43,734 nucleotides of DNA from NCBI GenBank assembly GCA_023265195.1, contig JAHFUG010000008.1, positions 1-43,734 on the forward strand, in the 5' to 3' direction. The notes under the pieces are model-generated. The model was not told the DNA's origin. It made no database searches and was given only the letters and a program-made list of their open reading frames with translations. Within the stretch, counting starts at the first letter, position 1. Each line of letters starts with the position of its first letter. A program made the translations under genes and the position numbers. This stretch comes from Blastocatellia bacterium (lineage in GTDB: Bacteria > Acidobacteriota > Blastocatellia > UBA7656). Positions 9,369-34,198 of the stretch are shown here, one piece after another.

Positions 9369-9370
9369 AA

Positions 9371-9562: not shown

Positions 9563-9592
9563 CCACTGTCCTCAGTACGGAGGGTTGAAGAA

Positions 9593-17115: not shown

Positions 17116-17883
17116 AATTGTTCTACGGCTCCTTAGTAGCAGCACAGACCAGTTCCCAAATCCCAGCAACGCAGTTCAGTTGGTGGATCGTTCATACTCA
17201 ATCAACCTACCTGCCTACGGCGGCAACCGGTCATTCCCGATCAGATCAGTCCGCGGGCGTTGCAACGGGAGATACCTCGATAACCGACTCGCACCTTCCA
17301 TCGGACTGCGGACCACATATCTTACGGCGCGATATTGGAAAATAGGCTTGACCTTCGCCGTCAACTCATAGAGAATGCAGTCCGCTCACCCGAATCGGAG
17401 CGAGTCCTCTTTTTTGTGCGCCGAAATCCAGTTGGCTGAAAGGCGTAGCGAGTTAGTTCAACAGCGAAAGAACCCCTGAGGAATTCGCGATGACAACCTG
17501 AGCGTGGAGTGTGCGTCACAGCGGAGTCTTATGGCCTTCACCAATTCACGCGCCGCTTGCATCGGCTGGTTCGTTAACATTTCTCAGTGCGGCTGGAGCA
17601 CCGTTTGTCGAGACGAATGAGAATGATTGGAGTTTGGTTCGCCGGCCCTGAGCGATCGCTAGGCGGCCTTGGTCGGGCGGCGATGGAATTGAGCGCATTA
17701 GACCGACGAATTCGGGACCAATGACAAGGCAACGGATGCGCTCAGGGCGTTCGTCGAGGTTCCATCGAGTCGCGCTTCTTTGTGGGACTCGTTTATCACC
17801 AAGAGCCGGGCAAAAAAGAAGAGCGGGGGAATTTGCCACAAGCCGTCCTCTCACCCAAATCCGAACCAGTGCTGCGCTACCTT

Positions 17884-19359
17884 ATGCAGGTCGCCTCTCA
17901 GCCTTGGACTGGGCTGGCCGGTTTTCTTGACGCCCTCCTGGAAATCGCATTGCAGGAGACCGCTTCGGATACAGGCTGGGTCGTTGTAGATGCGCGGTCG
18001 GTTCAAGATGTTCCTGCCCTTTCGATCAAATCGATGGACGGAGGGCCGGTAGCCAGTGCATCGGATCTTCTGCGATACTGGCGGGCCGCGAAGAAGGCGG
18101 AAGCCGACAACGCGGCGCGTAACGACGGTCTCAAAAACGCGCCCCTCGGCGTTTCAACGGCGCCTCCACGCGCGATCGACGGCGGCTCATCTCTTTCCGC
18201 GCCGCTGCTGGAGGGAAAGAAGGTAGTCGGTCTGCTCCACGTCGAATCGCGGCGGCCGTCAAGATACCCTGAACAGAAACGAGACGAGATCGAGCGGCTG
18301 GCCGGCGCCGCGGTTCCCGCGTTGCATCGGGTGTTGCTGAAAGAGCAGATGCGGAAAGCGGGAGCGGACGTGGATCTTATCGGCGTCAGCCCCAAGTTTC
18401 TCGACCTTGAAAGACAGATCAGGCTCGTGGCCAGCTACGATTGGGGACCGGTGCTCATTACCGGAGAGCGTGGTAGCGGCAAGGAGCTGACGGCTTGGGC
18501 GTTGCATTGCTGGAGTTCTCGACACGGCTCCGCATTTGTGCCCGTGCTTCCGTCCGCCTTCGCCGAAGGGCTGGTTGCCGATGAGCTCTTCGGACATGAA
18601 CGACATGCCTTCACCGGAGCCGCTCAGGAGCGGCTCGGAAAATTCAAAGCCGCCGATGGAGGGACGATATTCTTTGACGAAGTAGCGGACATGCCCCATT
18701 CCGTCCAGTCGGGTCTGTTGCGCATCATCGAAAGAGGTGAGTTGCCTCGAATCGGCAGGGACGTCCAGACAAAGGTGAATGTCCGCATAGTGTCAGCCAC
18801 TAACTGCAATCTGCAGGAACTCATAGCTCAAGGCAAATTCCGGCAGGACCTCTATGACCGTTTGCGGGTCTTCGAGATTCACGTGCCCCCCTTGAGAGAA
18901 CGCCGCGACGATATTCCACTCCTGATCGACCACTTCATTCGCAAGCACTGCAAGACAATGCAACGCCATATCCGATCCGAAAACACCAGCCTTTGCTCCA
19001 CGTGCAGCGAGTTTACCTGTGTGAATTGCGTCGCCGCTCCCGTATATTCCGTCCTGTCCCAGCTTGACTGGCCGGGAAATGTGCGGGAACTCAAGAGCCT
19101 CGTCCTTCGATTGCTTGCCCACACGCCGGACGAGACTATCGAACCTCACCATCTTCCCGCAGAGATTCACGCGCAAAGGCAAAAACCGGGCGGCGCCAAC
19201 ACGGATTTGACACTCGACGGCGCGATTCGATCGCACATCGAGCGTGTGTTGGAGGCGGCCAACCACAATCAAAGCGAGGCCGCTCGACTACTAGGCACTC
19301 CGCTCTCCACGCTCAGAAGCAAGATGAAGAAGCTTGGACTCAAGGTGCGAGAGGCTTGA
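17884..19359 (+). CDS. sigma-54-dependent Fis-family transcriptional activator (GAF sensor, AAA+ domain, HTH_8)
   Basis: GERGSGKE (Walker A), ELFGHERHAFTGA (GAFTGA-loop variant), GGTIFFDEVADM (Walker B), WPGNVREL and C-terminal NQSEAARLLGTPLSTLRSKMKKLGL. The ORF track allows GTG 17782; ATG 17884 starts directly at the GAF-like region. The start is uncertain. Confidence 0.9.
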   Translation: MQVASQPWTGLAGFLDALLEIALQETASDTGWVVVDARSVQDVPALSIKSMDGGPVASASDLLRYWRAAKKAEADNAARNDGLKNAPLGVSTAPPRAIDGGSSLSAPLLEGKKVVGLLHVESRRPSRYPEQKRDEIERLAGAAVPALHRVLLKEQMRKAGADVDLIGVSPKFLDLERQIRLVASYDWGPVLITGERGSGKELTAWALHCWSSRHGSAFVPVLPSAFAEGLVADELFGHERHAFTGAAQERLGKFKAADGGTIFFDEVADMPHSVQSGLLRIIERGELPRIGRDVQTKVNVRIVSATNCNLQELIAQGKFRQDLYDRLRVFEIHVPPLRERRDDIPLLIDHFIRKHCKTMQRHIRSENTSLCSTCSEFTCVNCVAAPVYSVLSQLDWPGNVRELKSLVLRLLAHTPDETIEPHHLPAEIHAQRQKPGGANTDLTLDGAIRSHIERVLEAANHNQSEAARLLGTPLSTLRSKMKKLGLKVREA

Positions 19360-19588
19360 CCCCAGACGTCCATCTCATCCGCACAACTTTTCGTTTCTCA
19401 TAGCGATCCGTCGCAACCGTATGAACTCGTGCAATACAAGGAGATCGAGTATATATAGCTTACTGACGAGCGAGTGGCTTGCGACAGAGCGCTAGTCTCT
19501 CCCGAAATACCGATTCCGGCCTTCAGGCCCAGTCCACGTAATCCCCTCATTTGCCCAATGAGTTAGCGATCTCGACTAAAGCGGCGCT

Positions 19589-19605
19589 CCGGCGCGGGGA
19601 TTGCT
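19589..19605 (+). promoter_or_regulatory. candidate sigma-54 (-24/-12) promoter
   Basis: cCGGCGCGgggaTTGCT compared with the consensus YTGGCACGrNNNTTGCW. GG (19591-19592) and GC (19603-19604) have the canonical spacing, with two mismatches elsewhere. It lies 230 bp after the EBP stop and 65 nt before ABC-gene ATG 19670. Confidence 0.55.
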
Positions 19606-19669
19606 CTCCCTTCAAGCCGCACTCTCTTGAAGCAGGTTGGGAAAGGAAGCCGACCATCTGATCGGCTCC

Positions 19670-21520
19670 ATGGCTCTGAAGCCGGTCGAGGACACTTGCG
19701 TGGAAAAACAAGAGGTTTCTCTCCTGAACGTCTTCGGTCTGTTCGCTAGGTTCAGCGCGGACTTTCTCAGACCCCGCACTCAATCCTGCGTATGGGCGTC
19801 GGTTCTAATCTGTCTAAACACCGGGCTTCAACTGCCTCTGCCTCTGCTGGCCGCGCGATTCGTGGACAGCGTCGTTGGCGCGCGTGCCGGCGCTTCGGCC
19901 CTTTATTACGCGATCGCACTCATTTCAGTCACGGTGGTGGAATACGGTGTTTTGCTGGCCAACCAGCGGATTAATCTGGGATTGCGCGAGGAAGTTCTCT
20001 TAAACGTACAGGCCCGGCTGGCGCGGCATGTCTACAGGTTGCCGATCTCATACTTTCACGACAAGCAGTCATCGTACATTCAATCGCGGATCATGACGGA
20101 CGGCAGGTCGGTTGAGGGTTTCCTGCCGCAGCGCGTGCTCCCTCTCCTTCTCGACTTGCTTCTGTACGCCGCCGTGCTCGGCTGCATCTTCGCAATAAGT
20201 CCGATGATGGGTGGCATGGTTTTGGCCGGCACGGCGTCATTCGGATCCGTTTTCTATTTGACCAGTCACAGAGTCCGCCGTTTGAGAACGAAGCTTCAGG
20301 AAGCGGCGTCGCGTTCGTCGGCGATCGTCGCCGATGGCTTCGCGGGAATCCGCACGGTGAAGATGTACGGCTGCGAATCGCTCTTCAGCAGCAGGGTGGA
20401 GAGCCAACTCTCTCACCTTCGGGATACGCAGTTTCTAGCCAGCATGACCGAAGCCGGCTACACCGGGGCGGCGACTTTCGTTTCCGCCCTCACCGGAGCC
20501 TCGGTCATCACCTACGGAGCATACGCCATTATGCGGAACAGCATGACGGTTGGCCAGTTGTTCGGCGTCATAATGTTTCTGGGTCTGCTCTATCGTCCCA
20601 TCACTACGTTTGTCGCCGAGTACCTCCTGGTGCAGCAGGCGGCGGCGGGCGCGCAGAGGATATACGAACTCCTTGGCCTGCCGACCGAGACGGAAATCCG
20701 AGCGCGGAAGCTTGGCGGCGATGCTCGAAGCGGCGGTAACAGCATCGGATCGAGCCTTTCTTTCGAGGGCGTCAGTTTCAGCTACACCGGGGACTGTCCT
20801 GTCCTCGTGGATATCGACCTCAACATTCAACCCGGAGAGTGCTTCGCCCTCGTGGGCAAGAGCGGGGCCGGCAAGACAACGATGATCAATCTCGTACTCG
20901 GCCTGTACGAAGGCTATGAGGGCGGCATATTCCTTGACGGCGCCGAGATCGGAACGACGCCGTTGCCCGAGCTTAGGCGCCGCATCGGCGTCGTAGACCA
21001 GACGGCATTTCTCTTTACCGGAACTATTCTCGACAACATCCGCATCGCGGAGCCGGATGCGAGCTTTGAAGAAGTCGTAGCGGCGGCGAAGGCGGCGTTC
21101 GCGCACGACTTCGTAAACCGGCTGACCGACGGCTACAACACGCGGATTGGCGAGCGAGGCGCGGGATTGTCCGCGGGTCAGTGCCAGCGGATAGCGCTGG
21201 CGAGGCTCTTTTTGAAGAACCCTGGAATCGTCATCCTCGACGAAGCGATTTCGTCGGTTGATTCGGAATCGGAAGGCGTCATCCACGCCGCCCTTGCCTC
21301 GCTGATCAAGGGAAGGACGAGCATCATCGTCGCGCATCGGTTGTCGTCGCTGATGCTGGCGAATCGGGTCGCGGTGCTGCAAGCGGGGCGAATCGTCGAA
21401 CAGGGAACGCATGGCGAGCTGTTGCTCCATGGCAGCGCATACAAACGGCTCTTCCGGGAGCAATTCGCTCCGTTGCGCGAGCCGTCTGGAACCGACCGAG
21501 CGGCCCCTGTGTTTATGTAG
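19670..21520 (+). CDS. ABC exporter, fused permease/ATPase (MsbA-like half transporter) with no C39 peptidase domain
   Basis: N-terminal six-helix TMD. Walker A GKSGAGKTT, signature LSAGQCQR, Walker B IVILDEA and H-loop IIVAHR. The ORF-track TTG at 19637 is an alternative start. Confidence 0.9.
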   Translation: MALKPVEDTCVEKQEVSLLNVFGLFARFSADFLRPRTQSCVWASVLICLNTGLQLPLPLLAARFVDSVVGARAGASALYYAIALISVTVVEYGVLLANQRINLGLREEVLLNVQARLARHVYRLPISYFHDKQSSYIQSRIMTDGRSVEGFLPQRVLPLLLDLLLYAAVLGCIFAISPMMGGMVLAGTASFGSVFYLTSHRVRRLRTKLQEAASRSSAIVADGFAGIRTVKMYGCESLFSSRVESQLSHLRDTQFLASMTEAGYTGAATFVSALTGASVITYGAYAIMRNSMTVGQLFGVIMFLGLLYRPITTFVAEYLLVQQAAAGAQRIYELLGLPTETEIRARKLGGDARSGGNSIGSSLSFEGVSFSYTGDCPVLVDIDLNIQPGECFALVGKSGAGKTTMINLVLGLYEGYEGGIFLDGAEIGTTPLPELRRRIGVVDQTAFLFTGTILDNIRIAEPDASFEEVVAAAKAAFAHDFVNRLTDGYNTRIGERGAGLSAGQCQRIALARLFLKNPGIVILDEAISSVDSESEGVIHAALASLIKGRTSIIVAHRLSSLMLANRVAVLQAGRIVEQGTHGELLLHGSAYKRLFREQFAPLREPSGTDRAAPVFM

Positions 21521-21546
21521 CCGCGGGGCATTCGCTAGGAGTTGAT

Positions 21547-23460
21547 ATGACTACAACAGTATCGAAAGAACGGCCGGACTCAACGATCCTCGACGGGACT
21601 TCGAATCGAGCGGGGCCGGTCAGAATCGCCCTGATCAACATGCCGTTTGCCGCCGCCAGGCGTCCGTCGATCCAGTGCGGACTGCTCAAGGCGATTTTGA
21701 ATCGAGCCGGGCATCAGACCGACGTCTTTTACTTCAACCTTCGGCTGGCCGCCGCTCTCGGCCACGAACTCTATTCCAAACTCGCCGACAATCAGTGGCT
21801 CAGCTTTTTGGGGGATTGGCTGTTCGGCGCGGCCGCGTTCGGCCCCCGCCAAGACGAGCTTCTCTATCTTCAGACCTCGGGCGCCGCCGGTCACCAGGCT
21901 CACGTTGGTTTGAACGAAGCCGAGTTGATCGAGCTCCGCAATCGGACCTTGCCGGCTCTGCTGGACGTGTGGATTGGCGAAACCGACTGGAGCGTCTACA
22001 CCGCCGCCGGCTTTTCGTGCACCTTCGATCAGAATGCCGCCTCGTTTGCGTTCGCCCGTCTGTTGAAGGAGCGCTTTCCCGGCCTTATCACCGTCTTTGG
22101 CGGGGCCAACTTCGATGACGACAGCGCCCCGGAGTACCTCCGCAAGCTCGATTGGATCGACTACATCGTGGTCGGCGAGGGGGATCAAGCCCTCCCCACC
22201 CTCGTCCAACGCCTTCAAGAAGGTCTATCCGGCGCTGGCGTCGCGGGTGTCGTCGCCCGCTCGAACGGACACGTCTGTTGTACGCCTGCCAAAATCGTTC
22301 CCGATTTGGATTCTCTCCCCGATCCCGACTATGACGACTACTTCGCGGCCTTGAACTCCCTCGGACAGCGCTCCGTGCTCGGCGCGGCGTCCCCTCAACT
22401 TCCCTTCCAGGGCGCTCGCGGATGTTGGTGGGGCCAAAAACACCACTGCACCTTTTGTGGCTTGAATGGGAGCGACATCGCGTTTCGCTCGAGAAACCCT
22501 CGCTTGGTCTACGACGAGCTACGGCGCCAATCGGCTCGCTACCGCACCCTTAAGTTCATCGCTACCGACAACATCCTCGACATGAAGTACATCGACACCC
22601 TCTTTACGTGGATGCGCGACAGCCGGCATGACTACAACCTCTTTTATGAAACAAAGGCCAACCTCACCCGCGCCCAGATCCGCACGCTGGTCCAGGGAGG
22701 CGCCAAAGCGATTCAAGCCGGCGTCGAAAGCCTGAACACCCATGTCCTGCGCCTGATGAACAAAGGGACGACTATGTTGCTCAACTTACGTCTCCTCAAG
22801 TGGGCTCGCTACTACGGCCTCCACGTCGCCTGGAACCTCCTCACCGGCTTCCCGGGTGAAACCCTTGACGACTATCAAGCGCAGGCGAGGCTGATACCGC
22901 TGATCGCTCACCTCGAGCCCCCCGGGATCGCCGACAGCATCATGCTCGAGAAGCATGGGCCTTACGTGATTAGCCGCGATCCTTTCTACCGGAACCTTCG
23001 TCCGGCAAGCGGATACTCGTTCATCTTTCAAGAGAGTATCGATCTCGACAAGATCGCGAAGTACTTTGACGCTGAACGGATGGCGGGCGACTGGCGCCCC
23101 GCCGCCTTCGAAGAGCTGAACAGGGGGGTCGATCGGTGGAACGATTTGTGGCGCGGCGACAAGCGGCCAGCCCTGGTCTGCCAACGATCCGCGGATTGGA
23201 TGCGCATCGAGGATCGCCGCGATCCGGGCGAGCCCAGGACACACTGGCTCACGGCCCCATTCGCGTCGGCTTATGGCGCGTGTTTGGAAACAGCCCAAAA
23301 CGCGGCCGGTGTCGTGCAACGTAGCCGGGAATCCGGCGAAGGCTATAGCTCGGAAAGTGATGCGCGCGGAATGCTCGGCGAAATGACTGAAAAGGGTTTG
23401 ATGGTTGAAGAGAACGGCAATTACCTGAGCCTCGCTATCCCGGTCAATCCGGGCTGGTGA
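21547..23460 (+). CDS. B12-binding-domain radical SAM protein, RiPP-maturase-like (copy A)
   Basis: N-terminal Rossmann-like IALINMPFAA..PSIQCGLLKAILNRAGHQTDVFYFNL. Cluster motif GCWWGQKHHCTFCGLNG (C-x7-C-x2-C, 22423-22458). AGGAG RBS before ATG 21547. I recall this pattern from the TIGR03975-type bacteriocin/RiPP maturation radical SAM family; this was not verified. Confidence 0.88.
   Translation: MTTTVSKERPDSTILDGTSNRAGPVRIALINMPFAAARRPSIQCGLLKAILNRAGHQTDVFYFNLRLAAALGHELYSKLADNQWLSFLGDWLFGAAAFGPRQDELLYLQTSGAAGHQAHVGLNEAELIELRNRTLPALLDVWIGETDWSVYTAAGFSCTFDQNAASFAFARLLKERFPGLITVFGGANFDDDSAPEYLRKLDWIDYIVVGEGDQALPTLVQRLQEGLSGAGVAGVVARSNGHVCCTPAKIVPDLDSLPDPDYDDYFAALNSLGQRSVLGAASPQLPFQGARGCWWGQKHHCTFCGLNGSDIAFRSRNPRLVYDELRRQSARYRTLKFIATDNILDMKYIDTLFTWMRDSRHDYNLFYETKANLTRAQIRTLVQGGAKAIQAGVESLNTHVLRLMNKGTTMLLNLRLLKWARYYGLHVAWNLLTGFPGETLDDYQAQARLIPLIAHLEPPGIADSIMLEKHGPYVISRDPFYRNLRPASGYSFIFQESIDLDKIAKYFDAERMAGDWRPAAFEELNRGVDRWNDLWRGDKRPALVCQRSADWMRIEDRRDPGEPRTHWLTAPFASAYGACLETAQNAAGVVQRSRESGEGYSSESDARGMLGEMTEKGLMVEENGNYLSLAIPVNPGW
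21664..22884 (+). repeat. 1,221-bp direct repeat, copy 1 (nucleotide-identical to 24924-26144)
   Basis: Line-by-line comparison at an offset of 3,260 bp found no mismatch. Identity decays abruptly at both ends. Antisense ORFs in the ORF track are also duplicated exactly. Confidence 0.95.
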
Positions 23461-23505
23461 GTATCAGGGCAAGCTGTTCCAACTCCGTCCTGGGAGGTGC
23501 GCCGT

Positions 23506-24780
23506 ATGTCCTCGAGTCTGCGTGATCTGATCCAAATCTCCACGCGAGAAGCTCCCGCCGCTTCTACCGTAGATATGCCGGAATTCGCCGCTGACGAAAA
23601 AGCGGCTCTTGAAGAACTGCTGGCGGCGCCGTATCCGGAGCCGGGCTTGCCGCCAAGCGTGGCGTTTATCATCCGGACTACGCGCCTGTGCAATCTGCGT
23701 TGTTCCTACTGCTATGTGTGTCCGGACGAATCGGCTCAGACGATGTCGTTTCCCCTGGTGGTGAGGACCATCCGGGATGCGTTGAGGGACCGGCGTCTTC
23801 GCGATGTCACTTTTTACTGGTTTGGCGGCGAGCCCACATTGCTGCCGGTGACGTTTTACGAGAAGGCGCTGTGGCTTCAACGAGCACTGCGCCGGAACGG
23901 TCAGGTAATTCACAACGACCTCATCACCAATGGCACTCGAGTTACGGACGAATGGATCAGACTGTGGCGTGACCACGGTTTCCGGTTACGCGTCAGCCTG
24001 GATGGTCCGCCGGAATCCCACGATGCACACCGGAAATTCGCTGGTGGGAAGCCTACCTCCGAGCTGGTCGTTCGCGGCATTCGGGCTCTAGTCGCCGCGG
24101 GGCTGGGGCCCAGCGTCGACCTTGTCGTGACCCCCGCGGTTCGGCGGATTGGCGCGGCGCGGCTGCTGGAGTACGTGCTGGAACTGGGAGTTAAGGAATT
24201 GCGCGTAAGGTATATGTTGGCTTCGCCCGAGGACGGCCTCACACCGGACGGAGAACGGCCACTTCCGTTCTCCGAATATGTCGGCTATCTTCGCGACTTA
24301 TTCCGAATTTGGTGGCCAAGAGCAGCCGGCAAGCTGGCCATACAGGAACTAACCGATCTCGTGGAGACCCTCCGCTCCGGACCCACCGGTCTGTGCGTTC
24401 ATTCCGGCCAGTGCTTTGGAAGCGTGTACACGATTGAACCGGACGGCGGCGTTTTTACGTGCGATGACTTCTTCGGTTACGACTCGCACCGGTTCGGAAA
24501 CCTCTTTCAAATGACGCTTTCTGATTGCGTTCGCGGCTCCCATCTCCGTCAACTACGTCAGAGGCAACAAATCGAGAGCGCAGACTACGAAGAATGCCGT
24601 TGGTTTTCAGTTTGCCATGGCGGCTGTCCCCGTTGGCGGCTGTCACCGGCGGTCTCCGGCGCGTCGGACGGTCACTGCTGCGGTATGAAGCGCTTGATTT
24701 CAGATATCGCGTCCGCGCTCGGATTAGCCGGACCGGCCCGAAGACCGGTCCGGCAATGCAAGACACAGGAGACGACATGA
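23506..24780 (+). CDS. radical SAM / SPASM-domain peptide-modifying enzyme (anSME-like), copy 1
   Basis: CNLRCSYC (C-x3-C-x2-C, 23689-23712). C-terminal Cys-rich SPASM-like region CVHSGQC...FTCDD...ECRWFSVCHGGCP. GGGAGG lies 8 nt before ATG 23506. The stop overlaps the next gene's start (ATGA). Confidence 0.88.
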   Translation: MSSSLRDLIQISTREAPAASTVDMPEFAADEKAALEELLAAPYPEPGLPPSVAFIIRTTRLCNLRCSYCYVCPDESAQTMSFPLVVRTIRDALRDRRLRDVTFYWFGGEPTLLPVTFYEKALWLQRALRRNGQVIHNDLITNGTRVTDEWIRLWRDHGFRLRVSLDGPPESHDAHRKFAGGKPTSELVVRGIRALVAAGLGPSVDLVVTPAVRRIGAARLLEYVLELGVKELRVRYMLASPEDGLTPDGERPLPFSEYVGYLRDLFRIWWPRAAGKLAIQELTDLVETLRSGPTGLCVHSGQCFGSVYTIEPDGGVFTCDDFFGYDSHRFGNLFQMTLSDCVRGSHLRQLRQRQQIESADYEECRWFSVCHGGCPRWRLSPAVSGASDGHCCGMKRLISDIASALGLAGPARRPVRQCKTQETT

Positions 24781-26720: not shown

Positions 26721-26742
26721 CAGCCGCGGTTTCCCGCGGCTG
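26721..26742 (+). terminator. terminator-like hairpin immediately after rSAM copy B
   Basis: CAGCCGCGG-tttc-CCGCGGCTG, a perfect 9-bp GC-rich stem starting 1 nt after the stop. It is followed by tggtgatggctgtttgat, a weak U tract. Confidence 0.4.
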
Positions 26743-26954
26743 TGGTGATGGCTGTTTGATCAGCTCAAGGATTCCTCCATGGGAGGGCCGCCGCGCCTTG
26801 CGCCGTGTTGGCAGGAATGAAACGCAAAGTCGCAAACCGCCAAATCAAGACGCCGCGCAAGTAGTGTTGTGGCCCTTTCATTTCCTGGGTTCCCCTTTAA
26901 CGGGGACCTGAACAACAAGCAATTCACTAAACCTCTCTAAAAGGAGACACCGCA

Positions 26955-27104
26955 ATGAATACCGAATACGCAGAAGACCAATTGGAAGATTGCACTTTCG
27001 GTAGCCACCCCAGCGTTCAGCTTGGGGCGGACGCCGGACTCAACGACAGCGCTGATGACCTCGACAGCGTCGAGTGGACCTCCGGCGTCAAGTGGTCGAA
27101 GTAA
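26955..27104 (+). CDS. candidate 49-aa precursor peptide, absent from the ORF track because it is under 60 aa
   Basis: AAGGAG (26941-26946) with an 8-nt spacer before the ATG. An in-frame stop lies upstream at 26928-26930. Translation: MNTEYAEDQLEDCTFGSHPSVQLGADAGLNDSADDLDSVEWTSGVKWSK. Bracketed by hairpins at 26721-26742 and 27113-27153. Confidence 0.45.
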   Translation: MNTEYAEDQLEDCTFGSHPSVQLGADAGLNDSADDLDSVEWTSGVKWSK

Positions 27105-27112
27105 CCAAGAGA

Positions 27113-27153
27113 GCCGGCGCCGCGCGCCGCGTCATCAGGAGTGCGGCGCCGGC
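27113..27153 (+). terminator. terminator or attenuator-like hairpin after the small ORF
   Basis: GCCGGCGCCGC (27113-27123) and GCGGCGCCGGC (27143-27153) form a perfect 11-bp GC stem with a 19-nt loop, 9 nt after the TAA. The downstream sequence catcgtcgttatc is only moderately T-rich. Confidence 0.45.
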
Positions 27154-27255
27154 CATCGTCGTTATCGCTCACGTGCGGGCGCGTGGTCCCAGAAAACAAT
27201 GGGTGGAGTTGATATATAATCGCGTTTCTCCCGGCAGCAACACCTTGGAGGCGAT

Positions 27256-29724
27256 ATGACTGATTCCTTGAAGGAGTGGCTCTCCGGATTCCGGCAACTC
27301 AGCCGCAATCCGGGCTTTTCAGCGAGTGTCGTTTTCACCCTTGCACTCGCAATGGGCGTCACTTCCGCGATGATGAGTGTTGGAGACGCGCTGTTGTTGA
27401 AACCTCTTCCCTATCACAAGCCCGGCGAGTTGTTCGACGTCTCGGAGACCTCGGCGCGGTCAAGCGGCGTGACTTCGCTGCCGAACGCACTCGATTGGAA
27501 AGAGCAAAGCCGGACGCTGAAGCCGGTTGCATACTACATGGAAACGGCGCTTCCCCTCGATTTGGGATCAGGGACAACGATTGTGCCCGTGGTCAAGGGA
27601 AGCTATGAGATGTTTGAAACTCTGGGCGTCACGCCGGCCGTGGGCCGCGTCTTTGATCCGCGGGACGAGCGTGAACCCGAAAAGAACGTGGCTGTTCTCA
27701 GCGCCGCGTTTTGGAGGGAAACGTATGGAGAAGATCGCTCCGTCATCGGAAAGACCATAAGGTTGAACCATTCCTCATACACGATCATCGGAATAACGCC
27801 GGCGGAGTTCGCTTTTCCGATCGGCTATCCCACTGCTATTTGGACGCCGTTGGCGCCCGAGCGGGATTTAAAGGAAAACCGCGGCGCAAGGAATCTGTCG
27901 GTGATCGGACGCAGTCATCCCGGAGAAACCCTGAAATCCGTCGAAGCGGAATTCGCAGTGCTTTCGCGGCGATTGAGCGAGCAGTATCCCGACGCGCAAC
28001 AGGGGTGGACGACTCGAGTGAGGAGCTATGACGACTTGGCCAGAGGCCACCTGCGGCCAATGGTGTTGGCGCTGGTAGGAGCCCTGGGGGTGGTCTTCTT
28101 GATTGCATGCGCGAACGTGACGGGTTTGCTCCTGGCGCGTGTCTCGGCGCGCCGCCGCGAATTCACGATCAAGGCCGCCCTTGGCGCGTCAATGTTGCGG
28201 ATCGTGCGGCAAATCCTGATTGAATGCGTCCTGCTATCGCTGATCGGAGCCGGGTTTGGCGCTCTGTTCACCTTGATCATCCTTACGATCTTCCAGCCGC
28301 ATCTCGGAATTCACGTTCGAGAGGCGGGCGAAGTGGCGATGAACTGGCGCGTCGGGCTGTTCGTTCTCGTTCAGGCAATAGCCTGCGGCTCTCTCACCGC
28401 AATCCTCCCCGCCCTGGCTCTGGCCCGCGAGACGTCTCAGTCAGGGTTGCGCGAGGAGGCGTTGACGGTGCTGTCCAGCCGGCGTCAGAACCGGCTGATG
28501 AAAGTCCTGGCCTCCAGCCAAGTGGCGCTGACGTTTGTTCTGCTGGTGGCCGCGGGCCTGATGCTTCGCACCTTGGACCGGCTCCAGCACACGAATACCG
28601 GGTTTGAGCCGGACAACGTGCTGACGGCCGAGCTCTGGCCTTCGCTGGAGCCGGCGGCCGGGGACGCACTCTCGGAAACTTCCGGCCGCGGGGATCTCGT
28701 GCGTGACGCTTACCTTCCGCTGGTCGATCATCTTGGGTCGTTGCCCGAGGTGCAAGCCGCCGGCTTGATCTCCGTGCTGCCGCTCTCGGGATTTTCAGGA
28801 ACCCGGTTCTTTGTCGCGGGCCGGCCTAAACCGAGTTCCGCCGAGACTCCGCGCTGCGAGATCCGCGCGGTCAGCGAGGGATATTTTCGCGCCCTCGGAA
28901 TTCAACTTCTCGCGGGCCGCTTGCCCGGCGCGCAGGACGGCGGCCGAACCTCACCGGTGGCTGTGATCAACGACGTACTGGCTCGGAAGTACTTTCCCGA
29001 CGACGATGCGCTCGGAAAACAGGTCAAACTCCGTTTCGAAGGCCCAAACAAGGAGTCCATCACTATCGTCGGCGTCTTTCGCGCAACCGTCCAGCGCAGT
29101 CTCTCCGACCCGCCGGAGCCGGAGTTGGACTTGCCCTATTCACAACTCACGCCTGACCACCTCCTCTACCCTTATCTCGGCGCGGTGAAAACCAACGTAG
29201 TGCTTCGAACCGCCGTGCCGCCCGAGAGAGTGGCGCCTTCGCTGCGCCGCGCCGTTTACAAAGAGGCGCCGGACCTGGCAATCGACAATGTTCGCTCCTT
29301 GGCCGATCATATGAGGCGTACGCTTACGGGCCGCCAGTTCTCGTTGTTCCTAATCGCCACTTTCGCCCTGCTCGCATTAGCGATGGCTTTGGCGGGGCTT
29401 CACGCGGTGATAGCCCTCTGGGTGAGCCAGCGGACTCGCGAGTTGGGACTGCGCATGGCGCTTGGAGCGCCGCGGTCAAACGTCGTCGGTCTCGTCGTGC
29501 GACAGACCGGCTTTGTCGTCATCGCCGGGTTGATAGCCGGCTGGGGGCTTTTCGCGCCGCTGAGTCATTTGGTAGGGGATTTCCTTCAGGGAGTCGCCGT
29601 CACCGACACACTCACGATCGCGGCCGTCTCCTTGAGCATTTTATTGATAGGGCTGCTGGCGGGCTTCCGTCCGGCGTGGCGCGCAGCCTCCATTTTGCCA
29701 AATGACGTACTGCGCTCCGAATGA
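27256..29724 (+). CDS. ADOP-family duplicated FtsX/MacB-type ABC permease
   Basis: The N-terminus LSRNPGFSASVVFTLALAMGVTSAMMSVGDALLLKPLPYHKPGELF is typical of the acidobacterial duplicated orphan permease family. Two FtsX-like 4-TM modules. GGAGG lies before ATG 27256. A perfect TATAAT sits at 27215-27220. Confidence 0.88.
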   Translation: MTDSLKEWLSGFRQLSRNPGFSASVVFTLALAMGVTSAMMSVGDALLLKPLPYHKPGELFDVSETSARSSGVTSLPNALDWKEQSRTLKPVAYYMETALPLDLGSGTTIVPVVKGSYEMFETLGVTPAVGRVFDPRDEREPEKNVAVLSAAFWRETYGEDRSVIGKTIRLNHSSYTIIGITPAEFAFPIGYPTAIWTPLAPERDLKENRGARNLSVIGRSHPGETLKSVEAEFAVLSRRLSEQYPDAQQGWTTRVRSYDDLARGHLRPMVLALVGALGVVFLIACANVTGLLLARVSARRREFTIKAALGASMLRIVRQILIECVLLSLIGAGFGALFTLIILTIFQPHLGIHVREAGEVAMNWRVGLFVLVQAIACGSLTAILPALALARETSQSGLREEALTVLSSRRQNRLMKVLASSQVALTFVLLVAAGLMLRTLDRLQHTNTGFEPDNVLTAELWPSLEPAAGDALSETSGRGDLVRDAYLPLVDHLGSLPEVQAAGLISVLPLSGFSGTRFFVAGRPKPSSAETPRCEIRAVSEGYFRALGIQLLAGRLPGAQDGGRTSPVAVINDVLARKYFPDDDALGKQVKLRFEGPNKESITIVGVFRATVQRSLSDPPEPELDLPYSQLTPDHLLYPYLGAVKTNVVLRTAVPPERVAPSLRRAVYKEAPDLAIDNVRSLADHMRRTLTGRQFSLFLIATFALLALAMALAGLHAVIALWVSQRTRELGLRMALGAPRSNVVGLVVRQTGFVVIAGLIAGWGLFAPLSHLVGDFLQGVAVTDTLTIAAVSLSILLIGLLAGFRPAWRAASILPNDVLRSE

Positions 29725-29730
29725 CCGGTT

Positions 29731-31332
29731 ATGACACCGCGCTGGCGCCATGACTTTGACGGTATGTCGCGCCAGACTTCTTGCTTGAGGTCAACAACCT
29801 CGGAAGGCAGGCGGACGATGAGTCTCGAGTCTGTTTTGGAAACGACCCTGGAACGGACTGTCAGTGAGAACGAACTCGACGGCCTGATCCTCAAGGCAAG
29901 CCGCGCGAGGTCCAAGAGCGCTCCATACGGCGCCGGCCAGGGGCAGGCCAAGAAGCCGTCATGGCATGCCCGAAAGCCTTTGCGGCTTCTGAAGATGGAG
30001 CTTGGAAACACCCTCGTGCTCCACCCGCAAACCGGCGCCTGGACGATCGTCGCGCCCGAGGGTCTCGGCCAAGTACAAGCTATCCTTCGGGCGTCGGATG
30101 AGGGGCTGCTCGATGACATTCCGGACGTGGAAAACCGGCCTCTCGTAAAGTCGCTGGTGTCGTGCGGTCTTCTCGGGAGGGCTCCGATGCCGGCATTCGG
30201 CGTCAGTGACGTCGCAAAACAGCGGCCGCTAAGGTTGATGATTCTGAAAATCGTGGGCTACTGCAATCTCGCCTGCCGCTATTGCTACGACTATGATGAC
30301 GCAACCTACCACCGCACGCTGGATGTTCAACTTGGGAAAAGAGCGATTGAAGAAGCTCTCGCCTGCACCACACTCAGCCTATCGATCCTGTTCCATGGCG
30401 GCGAGCCGCTGCTGGCGTTCGACGAGATCCGTGTGTTGACGGCGTTCGCCCGGCAAGCCGCTCGGAGAGCCGGTAAGGACGTGAACTTCTCGGTGCAAAC
30501 GAACGGGACTTGTTTTACCGGCGAGATCGTTGATTTCCTTGTAACCGAAGAGTTCGCCATCGGGATTTCGCTGGATGGTCCCTCGCATCTCAATGACCTT
30601 GTCCGAATCGATAGACGCGGACGAGGTTGTCATGCCGCGGTGGAAGCATCTCTCGAGCGATATCCGGTCCTTCGAAGGACGGCCGGTGTCCTGACAACGG
30701 TGACGAGCGTAAACGCACGCGAGCTGCGCCGCGTCGCGGAATACGTGCGCGACCTCGGCATTCGCAGCTTCAACGCCGCGCTTTTCTTGCGGGAAGGGCG
30801 AGCCGCCGGGTCTTCGGACGGACTCTCGCCGTCGCCTGAAGATCTGATCGCCGGATATCTCGACTTGCTGGCGGGCGTCGAGAGCGGCGCGTTCGACGAC
30901 ATTCAAATCTGGCCGGTCCTGTACTATCTGCGGAACGTTCTGACGGACGCCCGCCCGAATGCGTGTCTCCGCAACGGCGGATGCGGCGCCGCCCGCGAAC
31001 TGGTGTCGGTCACCGTCAACGGGACCGTAGAGTCGTGCGACTGCGTCCGGCTCCCTGATCTGAGCTTGGGATCGATGGCGGATTCGACTATCGGAGAGGC
31101 ATTGCATGGGCAGGTGGCCGGCCTGATTAAATCCCGTTCCGAATGCTCGCTGCCTCGGTGTTCGGCGTGTCTCTATCGAGCGTTCTGTGGAGGCACTTGC
31201 TTTGCGAGGGCAGGCGGTTTGGACAAGGTCAACGAAAGCGAGTGCCGCTTGTCGAGGGCGGTCTTCGGCGAGATTTTTAAGAGTCTCAACCGTTCCAGCC
31301 GCCTTGAGCGGTATGCGCAATTGCATTCCTGA
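29731..31332 (+). CDS. radical SAM / SPASM-domain enzyme with a roughly 160-aa N-terminal extension, copy 2
   Basis: GYCNLACRYCYDY (C-x3-C-x2-C). C-terminal SPASM-like cysteines CLRNGGC..ESCDC..CSLPRCSACLYRAFCGGTCFA. The extension contains LVLHPQTGAWTIVAPEGLGQVQAILRASDEG, which is PqqD/RRE-like. Alternative starts at 29764 and 29818. Confidence 0.86.
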   Translation: MTPRWRHDFDGMSRQTSCLRSTTSEGRRTMSLESVLETTLERTVSENELDGLILKASRARSKSAPYGAGQGQAKKPSWHARKPLRLLKMELGNTLVLHPQTGAWTIVAPEGLGQVQAILRASDEGLLDDIPDVENRPLVKSLVSCGLLGRAPMPAFGVSDVAKQRPLRLMILKIVGYCNLACRYCYDYDDATYHRTLDVQLGKRAIEEALACTTLSLSILFHGGEPLLAFDEIRVLTAFARQAARRAGKDVNFSVQTNGTCFTGEIVDFLVTEEFAIGISLDGPSHLNDLVRIDRRGRGCHAAVEASLERYPVLRRTAGVLTTVTSVNARELRRVAEYVRDLGIRSFNAALFLREGRAAGSSDGLSPSPEDLIAGYLDLLAGVESGAFDDIQIWPVLYYLRNVLTDARPNACLRNGGCGAARELVSVTVNGTVESCDCVRLPDLSLGSMADSTIGEALHGQVAGLIKSRSECSLPRCSACLYRAFCGGTCFARAGGLDKVNESECRLSRAVFGEIFKSLNRSSRLERYAQLHS

Positions 31333-31364
31333 CTCTTTTGCCGGGTGGTTCCGGCTAGCCAGCT

Positions 31365-32798
31365 ATGAACTTCGCCGAATCTATCTTTGCAAGGAAGTTT
31401 CTGATCGCCGAATCCGACCTCGAGCGCTACCTGGCGGCCGCGTTGTCCACCGCCGGTGACTATGCCGACGTGTATATTGAACACGTAACATCCACGGCTC
31501 TCTCCATTGATGGTTCGATCGTCAAGACCGCCACGCAAGGAATGTCATTGGGAGCCGGCGTTCGCGTCGTCTCGGGGGAGCGCACGGGCTACGCCCATTC
31601 CGACAGCCTCGCCCCCGAAAGCGTTCTCAAGGCCGCTCGGATTGCGGCCCGCATAGCTCACGGACCGTCGCTGGTCACTAAGACCGGGTTTGAGGAAGTC
31701 CAGAAACCTGATCTCTACTCCATGCTCGCCGCACCCGCCGAATCCGCGCTAGACAAGCGGGTGGAACTAATAAAGCGCGCCGATGCCGCGGCGCGCGCCT
31801 CGGACCCACGCGTAACCGACGTGCACGTCGTCTACGCCGACAACTTACGCCAGGTTCTAGTCGCCACTTCAGAGGGCCGGCTCAGTTGTGACCGGCAACC
31901 CCTCACCCGGATCAGCGTAACCGCGCTGGCCCGCGGGATGGATGGCGCCGTGGGGGAGGGCCGCGCGGGTGGTGGTGGCAGAGTTGCGCTCGACTTCTTC
32001 CAGACTGACAAGACGCCGGAGTACTTCGGCGGCGAGGCCGCCCGCCAGGCCCTTGTGCAGATCAGCGCGGGCGAGGCGCCGGTTGGAGAAATGACCGTGG
32101 TCCTGGGATCGGGGTGGCCCGGCATCCTCATCCACGAAGCCGTCGGTCATGGTCTCGAAGCCGACTTCAACCGCAAAACGCTTTCCGCTTTCACGGGCCG
32201 CATCGGCGAGCGAGTCGCCAGCCCTTTGTGCACGATTGTTGACGACGGGACGATACCGAATGGCCGGGGTTCACTGAATGTGGACGACGAAGGGACGCCG
32301 ACCCGGCGAAACGTCCTGATCGAGAATGGGATTTTATGCGGCTACCTGCAGGACAAACTTTCCGGCGCCCTGATGCGCGCGCGGTTGACCGGCAACGGAC
32401 GGCGGGAGAACTATCAATTCGCCCCAGTGCCGCGCATGACAAACACGTTCTTGCTGGCTGGCGGCAGCGATCCCGATGAGATCGTACGCGGGGTTGGGCG
32501 CGGCCTCTATTGTGCTCGGTTCGGCGGGGGCCAGGTCGACATCACTAACGGCAACTTTGCTTTTACGGCCACCGAATGTTACCTCATCGAGGCTGGCAGG
32601 TTAACCCGCCCGGTTCGGTGGGCGACATTGATAGGGAACGGGCCGGAGTCTCTAAAACACGTCAGCATGGTCGGTCACGACCTCCGGCTGGACGAGGGCG
32701 TTGGCGTCTGCCGCAAGGACGGCCAAAACATCCCGATCGGGGTTGGCATGCCGACAACCAGGATCGACAACGTGACGGTGGGAGGCGTCGCGCAATGA
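31365..32798 (+). CDS. tldD: metalloprotease TldD
   Basis: HEAVGHGLEADF (HExxxH, 32133-32150), GSLNVDDEGTP and the typical length of 477 aa. Confidence 0.92.
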   Translation: MNFAESIFARKFLIAESDLERYLAAALSTAGDYADVYIEHVTSTALSIDGSIVKTATQGMSLGAGVRVVSGERTGYAHSDSLAPESVLKAARIAARIAHGPSLVTKTGFEEVQKPDLYSMLAAPAESALDKRVELIKRADAAARASDPRVTDVHVVYADNLRQVLVATSEGRLSCDRQPLTRISVTALARGMDGAVGEGRAGGGGRVALDFFQTDKTPEYFGGEAARQALVQISAGEAPVGEMTVVLGSGWPGILIHEAVGHGLEADFNRKTLSAFTGRIGERVASPLCTIVDDGTIPNGRGSLNVDDEGTPTRRNVLIENGILCGYLQDKLSGALMRARLTGNGRRENYQFAPVPRMTNTFLLAGGSDPDEIVRGVGRGLYCARFGGGQVDITNGNFAFTATECYLIEAGRLTRPVRWATLIGNGPESLKHVSMVGHDLRLDEGVGVCRKDGQNIPIGVGMPTTRIDNVTVGGVAQ

Positions 32799-34198
32799 GC
32801 GAGTTGGAACGACTCGCACGACAGGGCGTCCTGCTTGCTCTCGATCAGGGCGCCACCAACGCCGAGTGCACGATAGCCGAAGGCGAGCAACTTTCCTTGA
32901 GGGTTCGCATGCACGCGCTCGAGCAGATTGAGGAGGCCATCCGTCGAGGCGCCGGCATCCGCGTGCTGAAGGGGAACCGCGCCGGGTCGGCGACGACAAA
33001 CGACATGTCGGCGGAAGGCGTCAGCCGGATGGTAGGCTGTGCGCTCGATCTCGCGCGGATTGCCTCCGAAGACCCCTTCGCCGGCCTTCCCGGGCCAGGT
33101 GACCTCGCCCGGTGCTCGGATGACCTTGGGATTTACTCGAAAGACGTCACCGAACTGAACACCGAAGAGAGAGTCGCTCTAGCCCGGGCCGCGGAAGAAG
33201 CCGCTCTCCAACTCGACCCGCGCATGGTCGGCTCCGAAGGCGCCACCTTCGGCGCCTACGTCGGCCATCATGTCTTCGCGAATTCTCTCGAGTTCTGCCG
33301 ATCGTATCGCACCACCAATTGTTCCCTCTCGGTCTCCGCGGTCGCTCGGCAGAATGACGGTATGCAGCGCGACTACTACTGTTCAAGCAGCCGCTCGGCC
33401 GCCGGCCTGGAGTCACCCGAGGACGTCGGCCGCGCCGCGGCCGGCCGCGCTTTGCGGCGCCTAAATCCGCGCCGCATTGTAACTCAAAAGGCGCCGGTCA
33501 TCTTCGAGCCAAGGGCCGCCGGCAGTCTGGTTGGTCACTTGTTCAACGCGGTCAACGGCTCAAACATCTGCAGGGGCATGTCTTTCCTCGGCGGAAGACT
33601 CGGCAAGAAGATCGCAAGCGAGCTCCTGACGCTGATCGACGACAGCCAGATCCCGGGGCTGCTTGGCACCAGCCCGTTCGACGATGAAGGTGTTCGCGGT
33701 GGCCGCACGATCGTCATCGAAAATGGCGTCCTCAACAGCTATCTGCTTAACACCTATTCCGCCAGGAGGCTCGGCCTGAAGACAACGGGCAACGCCAAGC
33801 GCGGGCTTGCCGGAAGCGCCTGTGTGGGTCATGGCAATCTGTTCATAACCGGGCCCCGGCCGCCCGCCGGCCATGATTCATCCGGCATCGCCGGCTTCAG
33901 ACAGGCCGCGACGGACGAATTCCCGCCATCCTTGCCTCCCGGTCTCCCTGATTCCCTCCTTGTAACGGGGCTGGTCGGCCGTGGAGTCAACACTACAACT
34001 GGAGACTACTCCCAGGGAGCGGTCGGCTTTTGGGTTGAGAATGCTGAGATAGCTTATCCCGTTTCGGACATAGTCATCTCGGGGAAGCTGCAGCAGATGC
34101 TGATGGACATCGAGTGGATCGGCTCCGACCTTGCATTCCGCTCTTCTCTTGCTTCACCAACGCTCCTAGTGGGGCGGATGATGGTGGCGGGGCGCTGA
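32795..34198 (+). CDS. pmbA: PmbA/TldE metalloprotease partner
   Basis: ATG 32795 overlaps the tldD TGA (ATGA). TGDYSQGAVGFWVENAEIAYPV and SPFDDEGV are typical of PmbA. A roughly 20-aa Pro-rich insertion precedes LLVTGLVG. The ORF-track start at 32576 overlaps tldD and is not credible. Confidence 0.9.
   Translation: MSELERLARQGVLLALDQGATNAECTIAEGEQLSLRVRMHALEQIEEAIRRGAGIRVLKGNRAGSATTNDMSAEGVSRMVGCALDLARIASEDPFAGLPGPGDLARCSDDLGIYSKDVTELNTEERVALARAAEEAALQLDPRMVGSEGATFGAYVGHHVFANSLEFCRSYRTTNCSLSVSAVARQNDGMQRDYYCSSSRSAAGLESPEDVGRAAAGRALRRLNPRRIVTQKAPVIFEPRAAGSLVGHLFNAVNGSNICRGMSFLGGRLGKKIASELLTLIDDSQIPGLLGTSPFDDEGVRGGRTIVIENGVLNSYLLNTYSARRLGLKTTGNAKRGLAGSACVGHGNLFITGPRPPAGHDSSGIAGFRQAATDEFPPSLPPGLPDSLLVTGLVGRGVNTTTGDYSQGAVGFWVENAEIAYPVSDIVISGKLQQMLMDIEWIGSDLAFRSSLASPTLLVGRMMVAGR

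Follow-up and report, generated by a model that had tools for sequence, protein, structure and literature searches.

Does a block of ten consecutive genes on a Blastocatellia contig, four of them for radical S-adenosylmethionine (SAM) enzymes, make a modified peptide, and if so, from which precursor? The question is raised by positions 17782-34198 of a stretch of 43,734 nucleotides (contig JAHFUG010000008.1 of assembly GCA_023265195.1; the whole stretch analysed is called the window here), where ten open reading frames (ORFs) follow each other on the + strand. A preliminary description of this DNA had listed a sigma-54 activator, an ATP-binding cassette (ABC) exporter, a B12-binding radical SAM enzyme (B12-A), a radical SAM/SPASM enzyme (SPASM1), a second B12-binding radical SAM enzyme (B12-B), a 49-aa ORF, a permease of the ADOP family, a second radical SAM/SPASM enzyme (SPASM2) and the protease genes tldD and pmbA, and had proposed a system for a peptide made by the ribosome and modified after its translation (RiPP). 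Pfam and NCBIfam searches returned the same domain content for all ten ORFs and confirmed each gene on the + strand at the coordinates reported; the ATGA overlaps of SPASM1 with B12-B and of tldD with pmbA were likewise read in the sequence. Our answer is that the block is probably a RiPP biosynthetic gene cluster with the 49-aa ORF as its precursor, because a Trp-rich precursor is conserved, a recurrent B12/SPASM1 module lies upstream of it, SPASM2 lies downstream, and the block is kept in relatives. In agreement with the RiPP proposal, the B12 enzymes fall in TIGR03975, SPASM1 is nearest to DarW and DarE, and SPASM2 is CteB-like. The assignment of individual enzymes to sites in the peptide is clearly less secure than this overall conclusion. 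Judged from sequence comparison, the cluster reads as a fusion of two separate radical SAM RiPP cassettes around a single precursor.

The precursor gene (26955..27104, + strand) has an AAAGGAG Shine-Dalgarno sequence 7 nt upstream and encodes the 49-residue peptide MNTEYAEDQLEDCTFGSHPSVQLGADAGLNDSADDLDSVEWTSGVKWSK. This peptide has an acidic leader, and its putative core is composed of two V-x-W-x-x pentads joined by Gly, VEWTS-G-VKWSK. Two orthologues from other metagenomes, 73% and 71% identical, were found; the segment DSVEWTSGVKW[S/T]K was invariant, and Cys13 was replaced by Tyr in both. The substitutions were mostly synonymous, with a ratio of nonsynonymous to synonymous changes (pN/pS) of ~0.28 overall and ~0.08 for residues 37-49, the last 13 codons. 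On this comparative evidence, the ORF, earlier listed as a small peptide ORF, is a genuine gene: it is conserved, its Trp-rich C-terminus does not vary, and purifying selection acts on it, most strongly in the core. No match to the peptide was found in Pfam or NCBIfam, and a profile of the three 49-aa orthologues searched against 1.84 billion representative proteins retrieved only its own cluster and one spurious repeat protein. The B12/SPASM1 module stands upstream, with B12-B between SPASM1 and the precursor gene, and SPASM2 lies downstream; the two syntenies described below thus converge on this gene. Its core resembles the cores of both cassette families, a likeness limited to a short motif: VEWTSGVKWSK shows the hydrophobic-x-W pattern of the B12/SPASM1-family cores and contains two Trp residues and a terminal W-S-K, with no W-x-W.

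SPASM1 (23497..24780, + strand; the start is probably ATG 23506, after a 424-aa gene call) carries Radical_SAM and SPASM domains. In NCBIfam its scores were all below the cut-offs: 295 bits for DarW (cut-off 650), 228 for DarE (650), 198 for anSME, the sulfatase maturase model TIGR03942 (349), and 166 for DynA (450). The CNLRCSYC motif and the SPASM cysteines were invariant in the family alignment. A scan of one GTDB representative genome per species recovered relatives of 36-43% identity in many phyla (best 43%), and the DarE genes of Photorhabdus and Yersinia appeared in the same scan as 28-30% relatives; the genome of the window itself was not part of this set. In most loci with 38-44% SPASM1 homologues, a B12-binding radical SAM gene stood directly upstream, 44-51% identical to those of the window, and this module was found in Actinomycetota, Acidobacteriota, Chloroflexota, Gemmatimonadota and Pseudomonadota. 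ABC exporters ~28-34% identical to that of the window accompanied the pair in at least 10 distant loci. A precursor of ~60-130 aa followed in these distant loci, with the leader LPxxEQxxLxWILxRA and a Trp-rich C-terminus ending in KIWTFRW, VVVGWQYRFG, VTVSWSW, VTVSWKK or FIVAWIR. The true DarW is the Sulfidibacter corallicola enzyme (784 bits), whose downstream precursor ends in KWRWSWPF; the rest of the clade scored 430-460 bits on the DarW model, and the window enzyme lower, at 295. With a profile of the precursor leader (LPxQEQxVLxWILxRA), many enzymes of the SPASM1 family gave a match in their N-terminal ~35 residues (E between 1e-6 and 1e-4, for a nominal 1000 sequences); neither the 49-aa peptide nor SPASM1 of the window and its close relatives has this segment.

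Some further features of these distant loci were observed. The leader-like segment occurs in cis in the SPASM1-family enzymes P0004-P0011, for example at 9881-10015 of locus L013. A fusion of a protein-kinase domain with an O-methyltransferase stands beside the B12/SPASM1 pair in unrelated phyla (L002 5978-7969, L011 11627-13624, L019 14580-16544), and actinobacterial loci also contain an FHA/cNMP-binding ABC exporter, a GAF protein and an S8 peptidase. In L003 (4584-12101), the module is accompanied by a lanthipeptide synthetase of class III (RamC_N, Pkinase, LANC_like) and by a B12-binding radical SAM enzyme that carries a DUF5825 fusion; of the two different precursors after them, one is Cys-rich and one ends in ITIWTFKFG.

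The two B12 enzymes stand on either side of SPASM1 on the + strand, B12-A at 21547..23460 (637 aa) and its paralogue B12-B at 24777..26720 (647 aa). Both passed TIGR03975, the NCBIfam model for RiPP maturation radical SAM C-methyltransferases, with 577.3 and 575.5 bits, respectively, against a curated cut-off of 281.85; members of this family are treated as B12-dependent C-methyltransferases (PMC10288494). Both contain the Cys motif CWWGQKHHCTFC (Cx7Cx2C), at residue 293 in B12-A. The B12-binding model PF02310 gave 20 bits, below its gathering score of 32, and TokK was the sole sequence match in the PDB (E 5e-5). The genes share an exact direct repeat of 1221 bp on the + strand, copy 1 (21664..22884) covering the B12 and radical SAM core of B12-A and copy 2 (24924..26144) the core of B12-B, with 100% identity between the copies. 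At the protein level (BLASTP) the enzymes were 82% identical overall: residues ~46-446 were the same, and the C-terminal ~190 aa were only ~45% identical. The A-type C-terminal domain was 72-77% identical to its counterparts in loci L088 and L089 and the B-type domain 76-77% identical to those in L086 and L087; the two types were only 45-54% identical to each other. As each type is conserved among relatives, the duplication predates the split of the lineages, and the cores are being homogenised by gene conversion. Short-read contigs of the same strain (L150, L151) and of a relative ~77% identical at the DNA level (L084, L088) break or collapse at this repeat, from which it follows that both lineages undergo concerted evolution through gene conversion. 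The 100% identity of the repeat could be partly exaggerated by assembly polishing.

What the divergent C-terminal domains do was approached by modelling. An AlphaFold2 (AF2) model of the B12-B C-terminal region, built from a two-sequence alignment, had low confidence (mean pLDDT, the predicted local distance difference test, of 49); its last ~90 residues formed a winged-helix-like series of strand-strand-strand-helix-helix-helix-strand-strand. The best local Foldseek matches were Fur, MarR and the N-terminal domains of O-methyltransferases, none of them significant, and searches of PDB profiles with the C-terminal profile gave nothing significant either. The Pfam PqqD model, used to look for a RiPP recognition element (RRE), did not match the C-termini of the B12 enzymes, and hhalign gave a probability of 25% for the alignment of their profile with that of the RRE-like domain of SPASM2.

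SPASM2 is encoded at 29731..31332 of the + strand, with ATG 29818 as the likely start because gene calls give 504 aa and the alignment of homologues begins at residue 31. Its best NCBIfam scores were all below the cut-offs: PapB 147 bits (340), QhpD 122 (453) and the SCIFF maturase 108 (425). All radical SAM and SPASM cysteines were kept. The AF2 model had a pLDDT of 83, and residues 49-121 formed strands and helices with a pLDDT of ~90. Foldseek placed CteB (5WGG/5WHY) first, with E 1e-23, 468 aligned columns and a TM-score of 0.74, ahead of anSME, ChlB and TigE. According to this model, the architecture is CteB-like, an N-terminal RRE-like domain followed by radical SAM and SPASM domains; the Pfam PqqD model found no match in the N-terminus.

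Homologues 44-50% identical to SPASM2 follow small ORFs ending in DWTKTIWRRAC, DWMKTIWSRAC, SWSKTIWRRNC, AWTKTVWRRSGP or repeated WTKGTC, and a PF03279 LpxL-like acyltransferase comes after the enzyme gene in ~15 of 22 informative loci. TldD/PmbA and B12 enzymes were never present in the SPASM2-family loci elsewhere. Among the curated NCBIfam and Pfam models there is no name for this cassette, which may represent a family of lipidated, Trp/Cys-cross-linked RiPPs. The cassettes are those of loci L090-L108 (e.g., L090 9708-12395 and L104 2599-5256); WDKLC is found among their cores, and the acyltransferase gene overlaps the end of the radical SAM/SPASM gene. Precursor cores such as D-W-T-K-T-I-W-R-R-A-C resemble E-W-T-S-G-V-K-W-S-K of the window. 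In contrast to these cassettes, the window has no acyltransferase, no C-terminal Cys and an unrelated leader, and the ADOP gene is inserted between precursor and enzyme.

The remaining genes of the block encode candidate export and leader-removal functions. The fused transmembrane domain-nucleotide-binding domain ABC exporter (19637..21520, + strand; the start may be at ATG 19670) is HlyB/MsbA-like. Pfam detected ABC_membrane and ABC_tran only, with no Peptidase_C39 domain, as had been proposed, and all NCBIfam matches were below cut-off, type_I_sec_HlyB being the best with 369 bits. The permease (27256..29724, + strand) is of the duplicated MacB/FtsX type: it passed the ADOP model TIGR03434 with 722 bits (cut-off 622), contained two MacB_PCD and two FtsX stretches in Pfam and had no adjacent ATPase. 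Against DarB it scored 32 bits (cut-off 700), and neither a membrane-fusion protein nor a MacB-type ATPase, the partners of a DarBCD-type tripartite exporter, was found in the block with Pfam and NCBIfam. TldD (31365..32798) and PmbA, or TldE (32795..34198), are encoded on the + strand by adjacent, ATGA-coupled genes and have the features expected of such a pair: three PmbA_TldD domains each and an HExxxH motif in TldD only (HEAVGH at residue 257). Both were below the cut-offs of the canonical models, TldD just so (PRK10735, 494 bits; cut-off 513) and PmbA further (PRK11040, 337 bits; cut-off 438). No other protease is encoded in the cluster, in contrast to the S8 peptidase of the actinobacterial versions of the module.

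Is the block as a whole inherited together? Loci L084 and L085, from two JGI samples, contain the activator, ABC exporter, B12-binding radical SAM enzyme, precursor, ADOP permease, SPASM2, TldD and PmbA in this order, with protein identities of 63-83% (49% for the activator and 70% for the ADOP permease) and flanks unrelated to those of the window. The gene combination is, therefore, kept in relatives with different surroundings, an expectation that the preliminary description had set for a true system. The single B12 gene in both loci is an assembly collapse: L088, a 2.3-kb contig of the same sample, carries a SPASM1 orthologue (73%) together with the C-terminus of an A-type enzyme and the N-terminus of a B-type one, and its ends match the collapsed gene. 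The strain of the window itself (99.9% identical) was found in two further samples (L150, L151), where the contigs are broken at the same repeat. The full ten-gene set was conserved only within this one narrow clade.

The regulatory part of the block begins with the activator (17782..19359, + strand; start codon uncertain), which has a GAF sensor, an AAA+ domain and a Fis-type helix-turn-helix (HTH); the Pfam domains are GAF_2, Sigma54_activat (2.3e-53), AAA_lid_14 and HTH_8. With its Sigma54_activat AAA+ domain, Walker A motif GERGSGKE, sigma-54 contact loop HAFTGA (of the GAFTGA type) and DNA-binding HTH, it has the features of a bacterial enhancer-binding protein. In L084 (3884-5417) the activator is in two parts, a 456-aa gene and, in front of it, a 52-aa ORF with homology to the beginning of the GAF region, which suggests a frameshift or a sequencing error of that contig. 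A candidate sigma-54 (-24/-12) promoter, cGGCGCGGGGATTGCT, lies at 19590..19605 of the + strand, 32 nt upstream of the longest ABC ORF; it has two mismatches to TGGCAC-N5-TTGCW and the correct spacing. This element is the best-conserved island of an otherwise diverged spacer between the activator and ABC genes: L084 reads TGGAGCGGAGATTGCT, and the conserved part is the GG...GATTGCT block. For the -24/-12 promoter proposed from the window alone, conservation in a relative speaks in favour; the pattern match, given below, does not. No second conserved -24/-12 site was found before the precursor gene, and scans for sigma-70 promoters and intrinsic terminators returned matches at chance level only.

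A conserved stem-loop follows directly after the stop codon of the precursor gene (27113..27153, + strand). In the three orthologous sequences, RNAalifold predicted 16 pairs, 6 of them with compensatory changes, and -32 kcal/mol; no T-run comes after it. A short hairpin, GGTTCCCC...GGGGACC, was also seen at 26900-26922, upstream of the precursor gene, with one compensatory pair in the relatives, where an insertion of ~230 nt, missing from the window, separates such a hairpin from the precursor gene.

Several observations weigh against the conclusion that all ten genes form one cluster acting on the 49-aa peptide. When seven precursors of the B12/SPASM1 family were used in tblastn, no credible precursor with the LPxxEQxxLxWILxRA leader was found in the window, and with a full-length hidden Markov model (HMM) of the SPASM2-family precursors the 49-aa peptide ranked 19, with E = 20, among 1028 stop-to-stop segments. 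Neither family's precursor search picks out this peptide, and the enzyme-substrate assignment, therefore, rests on its position, on the core motif and on the finding that the block has no other conserved small ORF. The -24/-12 pattern was not above chance, with 8 matches in the window and 16 expected from shuffles. The winged-helix reading of the B12 C-termini is based on a low-confidence model and non-significant matches. Outside the narrow clade, the B12/SPASM1 pair was never seen together with TldD/PmbA, the ADOP permease, SPASM2 or the activator, save for an ADOP gene beside the module in one distant locus (L019); TldD/PmbA, a SPASM2-type enzyme and a sigma-54 activator were absent from all ~20 distant loci. 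As these loci keep only the B12 enzyme, SPASM1 and the precursor, often with the ABC exporter, the membership of the other genes rests on a single clade. Moreover, ADOP paralogues are numerous in Acidobacteriota, so the adjacency of this gene could be due to chance, and TldD has a nearly orthodox housekeeping score, so it could be the only copy in the genome.

In one alternative, SPASM2 alone modifies the 49-aa peptide, and the B12/SPASM1 module is orphaned: it would have lost a precursor of its own with the LPxxEQ leader and would be either inactive or acting on a peptide encoded elsewhere in the genome. The absence of the LPxxEQ family leader from the window ORFs, the loss of the leader-like N-terminal segment from SPASM1 and its close relatives, the low DarW score of SPASM1 within its clade and the resemblance of the precursor core to SPASM2-family cores all point in this direction. 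However, SPASM1 and both B12 genes are intact, with their catalytic cysteines present and the C-terminal domains 72-77% conserved, and gene conversion keeps the B12 cores identical, which is unexpected for decaying genes. The precursor gene, in addition, lies directly downstream of the module, as in the B12/SPASM1 family, and has a hydrophobic-x-W core. We consider this scenario very unlikely.

The narrow distribution of the second half could instead mean that only the ABC exporter, B12-A, SPASM1, B12-B and the 49-aa precursor constitute the RiPP unit, and that the other genes are bystanders: the ADOP protein an orphan permease, SPASM2 a radical SAM enzyme without its own precursor and acyltransferase, and TldD/PmbA housekeeping proteins. 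The ~20 distant loci and the TldD score just given would fit this explanation, as would the partners of the SPASM2 family elsewhere, which are a small precursor and a PF03279 acyltransferase and never TldD/PmbA, and the strong hairpin between the precursor gene and the ADOP gene. It is opposed by the relative with unrelated flanks and proteins 63-83% identical, in which the ten genes are kept in order on one strand, and by the tight spacing of the second half: 6-93 nt between the ADOP gene and SPASM2, 32 nt between SPASM2 and tldD, and the overlap of tldD and pmbA. SPASM2 has retained its radical SAM and SPASM cysteines and its RRE-like domain, the cluster offers no other conserved candidate substrate ORF and no other protease, and the G+C content is evenly raised from ~20 kb to 34.2 kb and falls after pmbA. 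An explanation limited to the first half thus seems unlikely to us, and we prefer to treat the ten genes as one RiPP cluster.

A third explanation places the radical SAM enzymes in primary metabolism or cofactor maturation, in the form of sulfatase maturation, of pyrroloquinoline quinone (PQQ) or quinohemoprotein biogenesis, with TldD standing in for PqqF in the PQQ-type version, or of hopanoid, lipid or bacteriochlorophyll methylation. The JGI annotation of the SPASM1 orthologue is indeed that of a sulfatase-maturating enzyme, anSME is the closest solved structure to SPASM1 by sequence, SPASM2 has the weak QhpD match, and a PQQ-dependent dehydrogenase is encoded 5 kb downstream. Nevertheless, anSME (198 against 349 bits) and QhpD (122 against 453) were far from their cut-offs, HpnR, HpnJ and BchE gave at most 50 bits against cut-offs of 480-650, and TIGR03975 was passed. 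Neither a sulfatase nor pqqB-D or qhp genes were found in the window, the PqqA motif E-x3-Y was not seen when the 49-aa sequence was read, and homologues of the enzymes stand beside Trp-rich precursors in many phyla. The membership of these enzymes in primary-metabolism families, which the preliminary description had named as the outcome that would speak against a RiPP system, was therefore not what the scores showed, and we regard this explanation as extremely improbable. Among the candidates tried, the identity of SPASM1 as a sulfatase maturase was rejected on its TIGR03942 score and because no sulfatase domain occurred in the scanned window ORFs; HMM scores and missing partner genes ruled out the sulfatase-maturase, PQQ/quinohemoprotein, hopanoid/lipid and proteusin readings.

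The surroundings of the block were in agreement with the preliminary description: domain scans of the flanks and the window ORFs found no sulfatase, cofactor or lipid gene adjoining it, and its immediate flanks hold recX, a PilT-like ATPase and an ORF of no known function followed by selA. A protein at least 90% identical to the PilT-like one is annotated in a Blastocatellia metagenome-assembled genome, which, taken with the ADOP gene, indicates Acidobacteriota. The peptidase genes lie at least 7 kb upstream and the PQQ-dependent dehydrogenase ~5 kb downstream. The gap of 7 nt reported between the ADOP gene and SPASM2 holds in essence for the longest SPASM2 ORF, where we counted 6 nt, but the likely start at ATG 29818 gives 93 nt. 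Farther upstream, positions 1054-10951 contain a same-strand run of peptidase genes (M14 carboxypeptidase, M28/PA/TFR-like, S9 prolyl oligopeptidase and M24), and a STAND ATPase, a Ser/Thr kinase with a YARHG domain, recX and the PilT-like ATPase lie between this run and the block. Rfam and tRNA scans of the window gave no match.

How would such a cluster work? In the mechanism that we propose, a ligand would be sensed by the GAF domain, and the sigma-54 activator would fire the -24/-12 promoter before the ABC gene. The operon would then be transcribed, and the hairpin after the precursor gene may raise the amount of precursor mRNA relative to the downstream genes. In the core VEWTS-G-VKWSK, one side-chain cross-link based on Trp would be made by SPASM1 and another by SPASM2, the likely type being a three-residue W-x-x ring, e.g., W47-S-K49, as in the W-S-K of darobactin. 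The B12 paralogues, with the same catalytic core and different, probably winged-helix, C-terminal peptide-binding domains, would C-methylate two different unactivated carbons, e.g., those of the Val preceding each Trp. The TldD/PmbA heterodimer would trim the unstructured acidic leader up to the cross-linked core, and a protease without a strict site requirement is a plausible partner for this. Finally, the ABC exporter, the ADOP permease or both may export the product or protect the producer. Cross-linking, C-methylation, leader removal, export and the control of a single operon by sigma-54 are all inferred functions.

Is this, then, a known kind of system? By comparison, the locus would resemble a darobactin/daropeptide or triceptide pathway to which PoyB/PoyC-type methyltransferases and a microcin-B17-type protease were added. 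The likeness to the darobactin, dynobactin and daropeptide clusters lies in the best named matches of SPASM1 (DarW, DarE and DynA), in the short precursor with a Trp-rich C-terminal core, whose final W-S-K is the second-ring triplet of darobactin, and in the MacB/FtsX-type permease gene, ADOP, that follows the precursor gene, as darB follows darA in the dar gene order. On the other hand, SPASM1 is far below the DarE and DarW cut-offs, and the core has no W-x-W but two Trp residues six positions apart. The window has no follower peptide, membrane-fusion protein or MacB-type ATPase, and it adds two B12-binding radical SAM enzymes, a second, RRE-type radical SAM/SPASM enzyme, a TldD/PmbA pair encoded in cis and an activator of the sigma-54 type. 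A gene for a leader protease is missing from the dar clusters, and proteolysis is attributed to unknown host hydrolases (PMC9055067); leader removal by TldD/PmbA in the window would fit this account of darobactin maturation (PMC9055067).

With the PoyB/PoyC group of proteusins, the window shares two B12 enzymes that pass the TIGR03975 cut-off. The proteusin analogy drawn in the preliminary description did not hold beyond this: the window has no NHLP/Nif11 leader, no PoyD-type epimerase is found among the radical SAM matches listed, and the darobactin-type enzymes are nearer. The B12 enzymes of the window, unlike those of this group, are paired with a DarE-like cyclase, a pairing conserved across phyla, and form a set of two paralogues whose cores are homogenised and whose C-termini have diverged. 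The triceptide and W-x-K/R maturases (XyeB, YhhB, GrrM/OscB, WprB and WgkB) are also radical SAM/SPASM enzymes acting on aromatic-x-x motifs, of which the window core offers W-T-S and W-S-K; the cores of the SPASM2 family contain W-x-K/R. Cross-linking at such motifs by radical SAM enzymes is documented, as WprB joins Trp-C5 to Arg-Cgamma at WPR motifs (PMC11851443). The equivalog scores of the window enzymes were far below the cut-offs of this group, however, and SPASM2 has an RRE-like domain and is nearest to the thioether-forming CteB. In comparison with the CteB/SCIFF and PapB/ranthipeptide maturases, SPASM2 stayed below the equivalog cut-offs, and the window precursor is not Cys-rich, its sole Cys13 being unconserved.

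In E. coli, TldD has the HExxxH motif and PmbA does not, and the adjacent genes of the window repeat this arrangement. The E. coli pair matures microcin B17, where, as reportedly found by Ghilarov and colleagues in 2017, TldD/TldE removes an unstructured leader from the modified peptide. In E. coli the two protease genes have a housekeeping role and are not linked to the mcb operon, whereas in the window they close the block; the chemistry predicted to accompany them there is radical SAM cross-linking and methylation, not azole formation.

At the family level, the members of the block belong only to TIGR03975 and ADOP and, at the domain level, to TldD/PmbA and the sigma-54 activators; they fall outside DarE, DarW, DynA, anSME, the proteusins, PapB and SCIFF. 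The pairing of a B12 enzyme with a DarE-like cyclase, the SPASM2-acyltransferase cassette and the fusion of these with TldD/PmbA were not described in NCBIfam, Pfam or a limited search of the literature. The preliminary description knew of no RiPP class with this gene combination; we found the combination in no curated family either, and regard the locus as a novel combination or variant and not a new kind of system. A more ambitious view is that the product has an undescribed scaffold, a C-terminal peptide of ~10-13 residues with two different Trp-anchored macrocycles, made by a DarE-like and a CteB-like RRE enzyme, respectively, two site-specific B12-dependent C-methylations and a dedicated cis-encoded TldD/PmbA leader peptidase. 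We hold this view to be doubtful; if it were true, TldD/E would also become a prime candidate for the role of the 'unknown host hydrolase' in the maturation of darobactin-type peptides, and the target of the product, a rigid peptide resembling a beta-strand, could lie in the outer membrane, BamA being an example.

Few new scaffolds act against Gram-negative bacteria; the darobactin-type peptides belong to them, and active mining of their natural diversity is under way. The locus studied here ties a distant relative of DarE to cobalamin-dependent C-methyltransferases, a pairing that occurs in at least five phyla and has no name in NCBIfam. The search around it also exposed a second widespread cassette, made of a Trp-rich precursor, an RRE-containing radical SAM/SPASM enzyme and an LpxL-like acyltransferase. 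The B12-A/B12-B pair, with an identical core and divergent C-terminal domains, amounts to a natural experiment in the encoding of substrate or site selectivity within this enzyme family. Collectively, the acidobacterial clade adds a second cyclase and TldD/PmbA, and so provides a concrete set of ten genes for a candidate cross-linked, methylated peptide, in which TldD/PmbA is a candidate, open to testing, for the hydrolase that takes off the leader in pathways of the darobactin type.

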